Sequence record: KP869112
DNA: 64,000 nt
Strand: one strand, 5' to 3'
Origin: Escherichia coli O157 typing phage 14
A program made the position numbers and the translations under genes. Numbering within the stretch: position 1 is the first letter of the stretch; every line of letters starts with the position of its first letter. Below the pieces are notes generated by a model. The model was not told the origin of the DNA. It was given only the letters and a program-made list of their open reading frames with translations, and searched no databases. Below, one piece after another: positions 20,478 to 34,465 of this stretch.

Positions 20478-22085
20478 CACACAATTAGCTACCCGGCTAA
20501 AGTGCTGGGAGCACCTATAACACATCTTTCAACTAAATTTCCTACCACCACAATCACTTACCTCCCACACATGACTGTTTGCTTGTTTAGTGAGCAGTCA
20601 TGCCTTGACATTCTTGCCTATCCTGATAAAATTAAGTTCTTCTCTTTTCTTTTACCGAGTAATTCGGGTTTTCTGTTCTCTTCGGTTTGAAGGGGTATGG
20701 AGATACACCTGAGTGAACAGGGTGAACAACCGAACCATTGGCTATGGCATTAGCATGGCGAAGCGGACGGGTGACGAAAGAGGGGCCGGAGGACACCAGT
20801 CACTGCCATATGATATATAGGTGATAACCTGAAGAGTCTGAATAAGTGTTTAAGTACCAGTCAGAGGAAAAGGTGAATGGTAGCCGAAGGGGGAGGGGGG
20901 TTTCTTGTATCTTTAATTTGTATATTATGTATACACTTGTAAACCAACACCATCTGAATTTGCTTACCACACAAAGCGGATAGAGACAAATATTACCTAT
21001 TAAACTTGAATTATTTATAGAAAATACCACAACACCACTTAAGTCTTTGATTTTACACATAAATCCTACAGATATTCACCCTCCATATTTAACATACTTG
21101 TAACATATCTATACCCAACCTGTCTGATCAACTCACCCAACTACATCCTCCATATTTCCCCTGTCTGTACTACCCCTGCCCAGCCGGGAGTCCCGTCATA
21201 TCTGGCTTTCCAGCAAATATCACACCCACAAATATCATTGCCTGAAGAGGGTTTCATCCCATAATACATGCCTTACCTGAAGAGCGCTTCATACACCACG
21301 TAAATTTTTTAATTGACCTGCAATTTTCCCGTCATGACCCCCTGCCCCGCCAGAGAGGTTGACTTTTCCCACACAGACCTGAAGAGCCAGCCAGAAATAT
21401 CTGAACAGGTCCAGTTATACCACGATTTTGACCTGACCGACAGGAGTGCCTCCCTGTCAGGAGCCGGTAGCGACTGGAGTGCTGCCAGGCGGACGAAATG
21501 GGAATACTTCTCATTCTTATAATAATTCTCAAATATCGAGGCAGTGAGGCAAATTAATAGGTGAGGCCGTTCACACAGTGGCACAACATTTGCAACCTAT
21601 CTTGTGGGGTGAATGAGAATACCTATCATTGTGAGAATAGTTATCATTACGGGCAATTTAACATAATACCCATTATGCGCACCACTGGCGATACATACAG
21701 GGGTTGATAACATGAGTTACTGTTTACGCACATAACAATTATATTTCTTACTATTTGTGTGGGATATAGTTAGCAGCCGATAGATTAGATATTGACCTGT
21801 AGACTTCCAACCGTCTAGACGTCTAAACGCCCACACAACAAGGCTTATACATACATCACTGAATGTAAACAGGACCGCAAAAATGCTACCATACAAGCTT
21901 GTAAATTTTTCATGCAGCACTTGACAAAGAGGAGGAAAACTTGTCTGACACACTGGGCACAACATAACATACTGCAGCACAATATGACACAATAACGACT
22001 GTTATTATTTCATGTTTCACTGTTCACGTATAGATTGTTCCCGCATAGACTGTTTACGCCTGGATAGTTCACGCATAGATGATAA

Positions 22086-22317
22086 GCCATGCCATTCGTT
22101 TGCATGACAATAATTAACTTGTTTACAATAGATGACATAATATAAAAGCAGGGCAACTATTAGAAGATCATAGTTGCCTTGCTTGTTATGTCATGATTAA
22201 CTAAATACAAGGCAACTATGATCTGATTAATAGATTGCAGACAAACTATCACGGGGGTGATTGTTACTGCTTTTATATTATGTCGCGACTCCGTCGCGCC
22301 ATGCCATTCGTTTGCAT
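22086..22317. repeat. repeat cluster: 20 bp direct repeat GCCATGCCATTCGTTTGCAT (x2), inverted repeat CATAATATAAAAGCAG/CTGCTTTTATATTATG, ATAGTTGCC motif x3
   Basis: Exact repeats read in sequence within the gene-free region. Confidence 0.6.
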
Positions 22318-22930
22318 AGTTGCCTTATTGTTACAGATAAAATAATTGTATTGTTAATTATTTCTTATCTTTCTATTAGTCATCTAATGATTTCAGTTAG
22401 TATAGTAACGTACAGTAAACATTAGACGACTAAAGATTTCTCTGCTTATAATAACCTAACGTGACAATTCCGGACTGTTTACGAAAAATGTTGACACCTG
22501 AGCTGATTTATGTTATGCAGTTTACACGAATAATTATTTTATGCAGGTATTGACTATTCTGTTATTCTATGGTTGGAATAAATACTTAGCAGGCTATAGA
22601 ATGGTGAGCGTACGTAAATTCTAAGATCTGGCGGCTATAGTTATGCCCGATTTTTCACGTAGAAAACGCTTTTATGAGTGTGTAAGTGTATGACTTATAA
22701 AGATTTTTAGTTGTTGACAAGATACTGAAGATGTGCATCAGGTTAAATTTTGTGCAATAGCGGCATTACGTGCAATTTTGGAAGGAAAAACGTGTAAAAA
22801 ATGGCGCTGCTACCACACAATGAAAGATTATGCAATAGCTATTTTACATGTATGTTTGTACAGTGGTGGTAATTGATGGCTTGTCGATTATTCCACTTGC
22901 CAGGCTGGGCCGTTTGTGGTAGGGGAAATA

Positions 22931-33291: not shown

Positions 33292-33557
33292 CGACTATTT
33301 TAAATTATTTTTATGATAGAATCCACCTGCCGCCCCCGCCAGGTTAACCACCATTTTTTCGTACTCTTCTTTATGTTCCAACGCTCCCGCCATAGCCTTT
33401 TCAACCAGGGCGATAGCCTCAGCGTCATTAATCGCTACATTTTCCAGGGGATCATATTACCTTTCATTTTTGTACCTCCTCTCCAGTTGTTGCCTACCCT
33501 ATAGCATAGCCCTACCAGGTTTGCAAGCTTTCACTCTCCCCTGCCAGGCTGGCCCCG

Positions 33558-33600
33558 CCAGGTCCTGGCAGTGGGCGCACCTGGTTATAATTTTTTTTTT
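33558..33600 (+). terminator. hairpin (CCAGGT/ACCTGG and CTGCCAGG/CCTGGCAG) followed by T10 run
   Basis: Inverted repeats and ten consecutive T seen in sequence. Confidence 0.35.
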
Positions 33601-33607
33601 GAAAGGT

Positions 33608-33636
33608 GTTGACAGCGGCCCCGCCAGGTGGCACAA
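33608..33636 (+). promoter_or_regulatory. candidate promoter (TTGACA, 17 nt, TGgCACAAT)
   Basis: Perfect -35, TG-extended weak -10, immediately upstream of conserved element copy 2. Confidence 0.35.
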
Positions 33637-33653
33637 TATACCTATCGAAAGGA

Positions 33654-33690
33654 CGGCAGGCACCGGTGACGGGGGAGACAACCACCGGGG
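33654..33690 (+). ncRNA. candidate small RNA / regulatory element, copy 2 (CGGCAGGCACCGGTGACGGGGGAGACAACCACCGGGG)
   Basis: Promoter-proximal, no ORF, paralogous to 24548 and 33791 elements. Confidence 0.25.
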
Positions 33691-33754
33691 ATGGGCGCTG
33701 CATAAAATGAGAACGGTTATCATTATCATTTAAAAATTTATGCAAAAAATCCTT

Positions 33755-33783
33755 GCTTTCTTTGTCCTGTGTGATACTATAAT
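33755..33783 (+). promoter_or_regulatory. candidate promoter with perfect TATAAT -10 and weak -35
   Basis: TATAAT at 33778-33783 upstream of element copy 3. Confidence 0.3.
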
Positions 33784-33790
33784 AACAAGC

Positions 33791-33830
33791 CGGGGCAACA
33801 GGGGCCGGGAGACAATCACCGGGCCTGCCC
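33791..33830 (+). ncRNA. candidate small RNA / regulatory element, copy 3 (diverged)
   Basis: Shares GGGAGACAATCACCGGG core and downstream GAGAATGATTATCATT block with copy 2. Confidence 0.2.
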
Positions 33831-33959
33831 GTTATTCTGCAAACGAGAATGATTATCATTCAAAATTCTAAATGAGAACTCCTCACATTTAATAAATTTA
33901 ATTAGCATGCTAATTACCCTCCGTAACAATTTCCTATAAAACAGTATCCCATAAAATAT

Positions 33960-34440
33960 TCCCATATAGAAATTTTAAAAATCCATTTCTGAAAACGAAA
34001 AATCGATTTCGTCCCCAAAAATTTCAGGTCGAGATCCGGAACGATTTCCAGAAAATCCGATTCAGAAAACGAAAAACAGATCGAGTACTGAGAAATTTAT
34101 CGAGAAAAATTTTCAGAAAATCCAAGCCCTGAAATGAAAAGTAGATCGAGTACCTGGAAAGCTGCACCGCAACTTCAAGATAGTGGTTAGATTGTTACCA
34201 TAGAAGGTCAAGGGTAAGTGGAGGAAGTTCTGGTAGAGGGAGGTTAGCATGTGTGGGAAATCTATAATGGTGGCCTGGAATATGGTGCAAACGATAGGAT
34301 GAGTTATTCAGCTTGTCGCGCCTACTCTGAAAAATCCATTTTAGTTTTCGATCCATTTTCTGATTTTCTAAGAATTTTAAAATATCCAGCCTGGTGAAAT
34401 ATCAAAAGGAGGAAATCCATTTTAGAAATCCCCCTTATAC
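33960..34440. repeat. AT-rich repeat tract: AAATCCATTTT (x4), TTCAGAAAACGAAAAA-like (x2), GATCGAGTAC (x2), CAGAAAATCC (x2)
   Basis: Short direct repeats read in a ~0.5 kb ORF-free stretch. Confidence 0.5.
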
Positions 34441-34465
34441 TTGATATGCCAGGAATTTTCAAGTA

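Follow-up and report, generated by a model that had tools for sequence, protein, structure and literature searches.

What does a stretch of about a kilobase without an evident gene do within a block of leftward phage genes? The question is raised by Escherichia coli O157 typing phage 14 (sequence record KP869112), of which 64 000 nt, hereafter the window, were analysed, and in which a first-pass annotation had singled out an island at 33300-34460 as a 1.1-kb region free of open reading frames (ORFs) that resembles a replication origin or a regulatory hub more than a spacer. The window is from a Vequintavirus, an rV5-like E. coli myophage, and more than 100 Vequintavirus E. coli myophages of ~137 kb match the island and its surroundings (1.3 kb in all) at 92-96% identity. 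In annotated relatives, the island lies within a long leftward run of small early genes; its neighbours encode small proteins without known function, and the DNA polymerase and primase-helicase genes are ~9 kb away, with the island downstream of them in terms of transcription. Box and motif counts below refer to the 64-kb window only and not to the whole phage genome, conservation values are per-column majorities in an alignment of 10 Vequintavirus islands, and the homologous regions of ukendt, phiTE, GAP31, LNA4, F4M1E, GEC_vB_MG, W70, and KNP2 were read for comparison across genera. The most informative elements of the island are 19-bp palindromes at 33706-33730, 33842-33866, and 33871-33889, which the first-pass annotation missed and which, judged by their sequence, are equivalent to operators of the host regulator Fur. 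We propose, with a confidence slightly short of an even chance, that the island, common to Vequintavirinae and Stephanstirmvirinae, is a control module that is transcribed rightward under gating by Fur and leads into an origin-like block of iterons.

On the evidence of the alignments, the core of the island is functional non-coding DNA and not spacer. Two segments, 33600-34125 and 34325-34440, are conserved at 0.96-1.0, compared with 0.83-0.94 for the flanking genes, and in the most divergent genome (L133) the adjacent gene is heavily diverged while the core is still ~95% identical. The ORFs that different annotators have drawn in the core conflict in strand and length; they have no ribosome-binding site and are disrupted among relatives by indels in homopolymeric A/T runs; across 33470-34460, no ORF with a ribosome-binding site is kept in frame among relatives, and distant genera have no ORF. 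It is this conservation above the flanking genes, together with the inconsistency of the ORFs, that argues for functional non-coding DNA. The suggestion that the island is more than a spacer is thus strongly supported, by conservation beyond that of flanking genes, by retention in L133, and by recurrence of the layout in other genera; where the first-pass annotation had asked whether related phages conserve or replace the island, they conserve its core.

The recurrence in other genera is extensive. A sensitive blastn search finds counterparts of 33792-33896, at 72-86% identity, in Phapecoctavirus, Seunavirus, Certrevirus, and Klebsiella phages, and the order of promoter, hairpin with a GAGACAA loop, palindromes, and repeats is found in ukendt, phiTE, GAP31, KNP2, LNA4, F4M1E, GEC_vB_MG, and W70; these homologous islands occupy a gap of 0.4-1.3 kb that annotators have left largely empty. 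From left to right, the cross-genus order comprises an optional small rightward gene, a promoter (PA) with a unit A of ~85 nt, a promoter (PB) with a GC-rich hairpin whose loop carries GAGACAAnCACC, between one and four 19-bp palindromes at a 29-bp phasing, a third promoter in some lineages, about three long direct repeats within AT-rich sequence, and the short repeats AAAACCATTTC / CAAATATCA. Unit A is absent from the window; in Vequintavirus, a second PB-type unit stands in its place, which gives P1 with unit 1 followed by P2 with unit 2 (repeat families D6 and D9). A query of IMG/VR with the flanking protein for close relatives returned just two loci. Captured host DNA was ruled out as a source, since 33600-33900 has no blastn match in 5,426 E. 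coli genomes.

What, then, are the palindromes? In the 9-1-9 model of the Fur consensus, neighbouring sites in a cluster overlap, shifted by 3 or 6 bp from one another (PMC2189734), and the criterion applied here was a 19-bp inverted repeat, AATGATAATNATTATCATT / GATAATGATAATCATTATC. Predicted operator 1 (33706-33730) consists of two 19-mers, AATGAGAACGGTTATCATT and AACGGTTATCATTATCATT, which overlap with a shift of 6 bp and each match 15 of the 18 positions of the 9-1-9 consensus. In predicted operator 2 (33842-33866), AACGAGAATGATTATCATT matches at 16 of 18 positions and is overlapped by a weaker site, again shifted by 6 bp. A weaker third box, AATGAGAACTCCTCACATT, lies at 33871-33889, exactly 29 bp after box 2. 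The overlapping pairs with a 6-bp offset (33706/33712 and 33842/33848) have counterparts in ukendt, phiTE, and L044. Matches of at least 15/18 to AATGATAATNATTATCATT number four in the window (21612, 33706, 33712, and 33842), against 0.1 expected from first-order simulations, and all four lie in its two non-coding regions; in total, at least six Fur-like boxes are present in the 64 kb, none of them in coding DNA. As an independent test, a weight matrix built from the phage boxes only was run over the enterobactin cluster of E. coli K-12 and its surroundings (45 kb) with a cut-off of 8 bits. It returned six hits at or above the cut-off, and 6/6 map to the intergenic regions fepA-fes, fepD-entS, and fepB-entC, which are the three Fur-controlled bidirectional promoters of the scanned 45 kb. 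The phage boxes match the consensus at 15-17 of 18 positions, versus 14-15 of 18 for the enterobactin-cluster sites, and their inner half-site bases fit the Fur consensus and not what we take to be the Zur box.

The boxes are also remarkably constant. The 16-mer GAGAATGATTATCATT is identical in 9/12 related non-Vequintavirus loci, being absent from L128, L129, and W70, and the 29-bp phasing is found in 7/8 related non-Vequintavirus loci with at least two boxes (L129, W70, and L072 have a single box). The boxes stay unchanged across lineages whose iterons and neighbouring small gene differ. Moreover, the exact 16-mer occurs in more than 116 unrelated IMG/VR viral contigs (L007-L125; for example, L090, L046, L022, L027, L030, L040, L043, L044, and L107). 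At least two strong boxes occur within 300 bp in 34% of these contigs, against a background of 0.04 per 600 bp, and 68% carry the 16-mer in ORF-poor DNA. This invariance across lineages and unrelated contigs is easier to reconcile with a conserved host protein as the binding factor than with a phage protein specific to one lineage. A phage regulator encoded beside the island was considered for this role and rejected: the small gene resembling a helix-turn-helix (HTH) gene is absent from the window, and a different gene is present in Seunavirus. As a separate observation, some GAGAATGATTATCATT clusters adjoin arrays of DnaA boxes or parS-like TGTTCCACGTGAAACA sites, and DnaA boxes are ~2.2-fold enriched within 300 bp of GAGAATGATTATCATT in viral contigs.

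It is conceivable, if on balance somewhat unlikely, that virulent phages of many lineages, beyond the rV5-like ones, carry Fur-operator arrays of near-consensus sequence in non-coding, origin-like DNA, by which early transcription or replication would be coupled to host iron or Fur would be sequestered. Sequestration could also be the whole story. Boxes acting as a sponge would soak up Fur as the genome amplifies and so de-repress host iron uptake, with promoters and iterons unrelated in function. The match of the boxes to the consensus, at least as close as that of the enterobactin-cluster sites, would suit such a sponge, as would the six or more non-coding boxes in 64 kb and the wide distribution of clusters in unrelated phage contigs, and multicopy Fur boxes do titrate Fur (the FURTA assay, cited in PMC2189734). 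However, the fixed distance of the boxes from the promoters and their 29-bp phasing suggest a role in cis, and the benefit of titration late in the lytic cycle is unproven. Each genome also offers few sites to thousands of Fur molecules, and we regard a pure sponge as quite improbable.

The boxes follow two predicted sigma-70 promoters, both of which point rightward inside the leftward gene block. P1 (33609-33637, plus strand; TTGACA-17-TGgCACAAT, with CCCCGCCAGG in its spacer and a predicted start at ~33644) was called by the promoter scan with 10/12 matches plus an upstream TG; it is nearly invariant in the 10 genomes, and W70 has a homologous promoter with the same spacer motif. P2 (33752-33779, plus strand; TTGCTT-16-TGaTACTAT, with an extended -10 and a predicted start at ~33786) was recognized by eye and from conservation: its -35 and -10 hexamers are invariant in 10/10 Vequintavirus genomes, with one spacer-base substitution in 3/10. 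Likewise, the PB promoters of other genera, which are homologues of P2, keep their hexamers and vary in their spacers; PA, PB, and PC of GAP31 are all plus-strand hits of the promoter scan, and PA of ukendt scores 11/12. The two candidate promoters of the first-pass annotation are borne out as sequence elements, and its regulatory hub is supported at the same level, given that the -35 and -10 elements are kept while spacers vary and that Fur-type operators follow. Relative to the predicted starts, operator 1 spans ~+62 to +86 for P1 and -56 to -80 for P2, and operator 2 spans ~+56 to +80 for P2. Counted in the same way, all boxes together cover ~+56 to +103; they come directly behind the 5' hairpin, and the next promoter is 50-80 bp further downstream.

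Between each promoter and its box lies a short leader. That of unit 1 (33645-33700, plus strand) is a GC-rich stem-loop presenting GGGAGACAACCACCGGG (33673-33689), paired with unit 2 by direct repeat D9; it is 100% conserved at 33650-33699 and folds at -21.7 kcal/mol (z -1.5). The leader of unit 2 (33786-33836, plus strand) presents GGGAGACAATCACCGGG (33807-33823) on a stem-loop, folds at -21.6 kcal/mol (z -1.4), and continues into the conserved TGCCCGTTATTCTGCAA. It is plausible that these leader hairpins are structured RNA. If so, the island might be a small-RNA locus, in which P1 and P2 would yield two paralogous RNAs that act in trans on a host or phage target by base-pairing through their GAGACAAnCACC loop, and the Fur boxes would control their expression, possibly through a leftward promoter making antisense RNA. 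The promoters are indeed conserved, the loop sequence is conserved in its hairpin context across genera, and other genera hold the additional conserved, RNA-like unit A in the island. A leftward promoter candidate can also be read from the sequence, TTGAAT-18-CAGAAT with box 2 as its spacer, and its flanking ATTCTG and TTCAA are found around the box in most genera. This candidate is nevertheless weak (8/12) and degraded in phiTE, ukendt, and W70; it is the one promoter that a box overlaps. Moreover, no terminator was found, no credible Rfam family matches the island or three distant homologous loci, the thermodynamic and covariation support is insignificant, and the iterons and right-hand block, which are equally conserved, would go unexplained. 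We consider a small-RNA locus unlikely.

To the right of the boxes, the island becomes AT-rich and repetitive, as the first-pass annotation had described: 33880-34129 has 67.6% A+T, the 99.7th percentile of the window. The iteron block (33960-34160, repeat family D1) holds three degenerate iterons of ~65-74 bp, each with GAAAATCCnTTT, GAAAACGAAAAA, and (GA)TCGAG(TAC), or, more exactly, three degenerate 62-nt direct repeats with spacings of 74 and 65 bp. They were defined by repeat search and cross-genus reading, as Tandem Repeats Finder misses degenerate units of ~70 bp. Their conservation is 0.99 at 33975-34100. Homologous GATCGAGWACC units are present in GAP31, LNA4, GEC_vB_MG, phiTE, and F4M1E; in Vequintavirus, Seunavirus, and Certrevirus, three homologous units of ~70 bp have GATCGAGWACC at their ends, and the units are lineage-specific in W70 (CTCAAGTTC) and ukendt (CTTTAAAT). 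Among the short repeats reported earlier, the pair resembling (T)TCAGAAAACGAAAAA proved to be part of these three direct repeats, and GATCGAGTAC does occur twice (34079 and 34144, against 0.26 expected). Of the four copies claimed for AAATCCATTT, three are exact (33979, 34332, and 34413) and represent all copies in the window, whereas the fourth is a variant, GATCCATTTT, at 34350. In ukendt (L006 2700-2910), each AT-rich repeat unit contains a minus-strand, promoter-like TTTACA-17/18-CAAAAT, and the 'iterons' of this phage might be tandem leftward promoters.

Taken together, at least three direct repeats beside an AT-rich region, the hallmark used here for an iteron origin, are found at 33960-34160, and the promoters are directed into the AT-rich element: P1 and P2 lie upstream of 33880-34130, and in Seunavirus and W70 a third promoter lies right before the iterons. 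A replication origin, as the first-pass annotation suggested, is thus plausible from the sequence for its iterons, very AT-rich tract, and inward promoters, although DnaA and integration host factor (IHF) sites, an initiator, a skew signal, and a divergence point, all discussed below, do not accompany them. One might go further and argue for a lambda-type origin without Fur, in which the boxes would be iterons for a phage-encoded dimeric initiator, activated by transcription, and the likeness to Fur operators would be coincidental. Two to four 19-bp palindromes phased at 29 bp beside AT-rich DNA, with further direct repeats, do recall the four O-binding repeats and AT-rich tract of lambda ori, and the neighbourhood of DnaA-box arrays or parS-like sites in some unrelated contigs would be in keeping. 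On the other hand, genera whose iterons differ (GATCGAG, CTCAAGTTC, and CTTTAAAT) have the same box sequence, and so do more than 116 unrelated viral contigs, a pattern better explained by a conserved host protein than by an initiator co-evolving with its phage. In addition, all hits of the box matrix in 45 kb of K-12 are in known Fur regions, and none of the genes next to the island is a candidate for the initiator. An origin of this type without Fur is, in our view, improbable.

We return to the Fur-gated module, which would work as follows. Host sigma-70 RNA polymerase would initiate rightward at the tandem P1 and P2, against the surrounding leftward genes, and each transcript would open with a GC-rich stem-loop of ~45-50 nt. 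The polymerase would then reach near-consensus Fur operators at a near-constant distance, ~+56 for P2 and ~+62 for P1. Fe-Fur on the operators would act as a roadblock just past the emerging hairpin, yielding short hairpin RNAs and leaving the iteron block untranscribed. With Fur off the DNA, at low iron or through titration by multiplying phage genomes, transcription would read through into the AT-rich iterons, which would serve as an origin-like site of unwinding or assembly, activated by transcription as in T7, T4, or lambda. In this scheme, Fur binding, the blocking or gating of transcription by it, and the iteron block as an origin are what we infer; it is the fixed spacing of box and promoter that suggests a roadblock stalling the polymerase. 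Alternatively, the boxes may act upstream of the next promoter in anti-silencing, in AT-rich DNA prone to H-NS.

Several points weigh against this proposal. The boxes lie clear of the -35 and -10 elements of P1 and P2, which they would overlap in the usual geometry of Fur repression, so that classical repression is not what the arrangement first suggests. Nor, to our knowledge, is Fur established as a roadblock that terminates transcription, and E. coli contains thousands of Fur molecules per cell, so that titration would require many phage genome copies. As for the leaders, RNAalifold found no consensus structure among 12 unit-B hairpin sequences; single-sequence folds share their topology and are no better than shuffles (z -2.1 to +0.4), the strand asymmetry of the hairpins gives no clear preference, and no intrinsic terminator follows unit 1 or unit 2. 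As for the origin step, the island has no DnaA box with at most one mismatch and no IHF core, no candidate initiator gene adjoins it, and it lies ~26 kb inside the leftward transcription unit and not at the divergent promoter region that starts this unit, ~26 kb away. Finally, neither the window nor the rV5 paper (PMC3606486) shows a GC-skew inflection.

The right-hand end of the island adds a further conserved element. A perfect 16-bp palindrome, AATTAGCATGCTAATT, directly follows the third box at 33900-33915, with a CACG centre in several relatives. Beyond the iterons, a fast-diverging spacer (34160-34325, conservation 0.80-0.90) contains a 17-codon plus-strand ORF with GGAGG, of which both ORF and ribosome-binding site are lost in most relatives. 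The near-invariant right-hand block (34325-34440) then carries AAATCCATTTT three times and AAATATC twice, the latter flanking a 9-bp dyad; at the same position, Seunavirus and Certrevirus have AAAACCATTTC and CAAATATCA repeats. The dyad (34380-34404) varies symmetrically among relatives (CCAGCCTGG, CCGGCCCGG, CCTGGTAGG, and CTGGGCAGG), as though selection acted on the symmetry of the dyad and not on its sequence.

At the left edge, the description of the island as free of ORFs needs correction. The left 170 bp (33295-33468) are a real minus-strand gene, annotated as a coding sequence in relatives and intact in most of them (L001, L002, L003, L135, L137, and L133), so that the observation which the first-pass annotation named as speaking for a decayed ORF, an intact gene in relatives, applies to this part alone, while the absence of genes stands for the core. 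The gene encodes 57 aa in relatives, and its product matches phrog_21957 (E 9e-32); in the window, alignment places a 1-nt deletion in a C run at ~33447, which leaves a 10-codon remnant behind a strong GGAGG ribosome-binding site at ~33474-33480 (minus strand). In L132, the gene is also frameshifted in the same G/C homopolymer, by -2 nt compared with -1 nt in the window, and in EdH4 it carries a compensating -1/+1 indel pair further along. These frameshifts could be sequencing errors, or the gene could be dispensable or variable.

Between this gene and P1 lies the T10-tailed hairpin to which the first-pass annotation gave prominence. The T10 run (33591-33600) is there, after a long GC-rich hairpin of -36.7 kcal/mol with a z-score of only -1.8, but its importance is not borne out. 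The region at 33500-33600 (plus strand), with its CCWGG cluster and a conserved kernel, CCAGGCTGGCCCCGCCAGG, is the least conserved segment of the alignment (0.82), with the most gaps and indels. The length of the A/T run differs among relatives by -1, +1, or +2 nt and ranges from A3T6 to T12, with A3-4T6 in several of them; the terminator scan made no call here, and with stem and T run both varying, a conserved intrinsic terminator is not apparent. By this variation, the hairpin is dispensable in detail, and the T tract, at ~-45 to -54 of P1, may be an UP-like element rather than a terminator tail. As reported earlier, CCCCGCCAGGT has four exact copies, at 33334, 33553, 33619, and 26316, against 0.59 expected at up to one mismatch. 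The copies do not form a single class of site, since their contexts are unlike: they are found in a coding sequence, at the kernel of a small hairpin that is conserved, in the P1 spacer, and in a terminator-like hairpin far away. CCWGG (Dcm-type) sites peak at 33339-33624, where 290 bp contain 9 of them, compared with an average of 2.2 per kb over the window, and one of the nine falls in the P1 spacer. Genes for a Dcm-like cytosine methyltransferase and for an adenine methyltransferase are present in relatives. GATC is not enriched, with four sites in the island, about the average density of the window.

Could the island, then, be decayed coding DNA, plain spacer, or a terminator or packaging region without a specific regulatory role? 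The broken gene on the left, the several hypothetical proteins annotated across the island in relatives, and the hairpin followed by a T run might be taken that way. Yet the core is conserved above real genes, the annotated ORFs are inconsistent and broken by indels, the motif order is kept in distant genera without any ORF, the T-run hairpin is the least conserved part, and terminase genes are not nearby. Such an explanation is very improbable.

Other parts of the layout differ between lineages. Unit A, ~85 nt long, almost invariant and RNA-like (CGCCACCCCACGGCGAAAAGGCGGGGCUAAC...GGUGGAUCGCCGGUAG), is found with an extra promoter in Seunavirus, Certrevirus, Phapecoctavirus, and W70 (L004 2330-2420, L005 2320-2410, L006 2390-2480, and L130 1820-1910; also L048 and L127-L129); it folds consistently, with one compensatory pair and no Rfam match. 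In W70, ukendt, and phiTE, a small rightward gene at the left edge of the island belongs to phrog_19316 (L130 1507-1773, L006 ~2076-2342, and L004 ~2003-2284), and its motif WQGGTVHQVASATGL suggests a helix-turn-helix. An unrelated small gene takes this position in Seunavirus, and neither is present in Vequintavirus. A link to the phiTE pseudo-ToxI was ruled out, as that locus is at 106.7 kb and the homologous island at 37-42 kb.

Within the window, a second gene-free region at 20900-22900 deserves mention. The rV5 genome paper, which identified no origin by skew analysis, describes a 2.6-kb "non-coding" box (PMC3606486) that is different from the island and corresponds to ~20.2-22.8 kb of the window. 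The second region is the counterpart of this box, where two transcription units converge, and has three Fur-like boxes (21497, 21612, and 21630) as well as AAATATCA at 21215 and 21230. Paralogy of the two regions was rejected, since they lack extended similarity and share boxes and short motifs only.

A search of the literature on rV5-type origins, transcriptomes, and Fur boxes in non-coding islands of lytic phages found nothing relevant. The rV5-like phages are widely used candidates for therapy and biocontrol. If Fur gates the module, phage development would hinge on iron availability, the condition that differs most between laboratory broth and the infected animal, and this would bear on efficacy in vivo. 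The recurrence of box clusters in unrelated viral contigs points to a general route by which phages may read or manipulate the host iron regulon; if Fur is sequestered, the clusters would amount to a natural titration of Fur that turns on host iron uptake to the benefit of the phage.

How does the island compare with known systems? In the PLE satellite of the Vibrio phage ICP1, a gene-free, repeat-bearing region is a demonstrated origin (PMC7145576). The island resembles it in being kilobase-scale, gene-free DNA with several repeat families, whereas the PLE region lies between divergent operons with the cognate RepA nearby, neither of which applies here. A second parallel is offered by phages T7 and T4: in the primary origin of T7, an AT-rich tract lies downstream of the tandem promoters 1.1A and 1.1B, and oriF and oriG of T4 combine a promoter with an unwinding element and are primed by an R-loop. 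Similarly, the tandem promoters of the island face a very AT-rich repeat tract without DnaA boxes. Unlike those origins, however, the island has predicted host sigma-70 promoters, operator arrays between promoters and tract, and iterons of ~70 bp. In lambda, four 19-bp dyad-symmetric sites for the O protein lie beside an AT-rich region, and the origin is activated by transcription. The phased 19-bp palindromes of the island also adjoin AT-rich DNA, with transcription predicted nearby, but they carry the consensus of a host regulator, are common to unrelated phages, and lie outside any initiator gene.

Two further parallels concern the operators themselves. Cyanophages carry sites for the host regulators PhoB and NtcA in lytic phage genomes, and here, too, a virulent phage has predicted operators for a nutrient-sensing regulator of its host; the difference is that the regulator would be Fur, responding to iron, and that the operators lie in a non-coding module and not upstream of an auxiliary metabolic gene. 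The phage boxes are like E. coli Fur operators in their 15-17 of 18 matches, in their 6-bp overlaps, and in that their matrix retrieves just the enterobactin-cluster regions. In contrast to these operators, they have no iron-related gene downstream, lie in an island of a lytic phage ~56-103 nt downstream of promoter starts, and are phased at 29 bp. Set beside these systems, the island is read most naturally as host-regulator operators that a virulent phage appears to have recruited into an origin-like setting.

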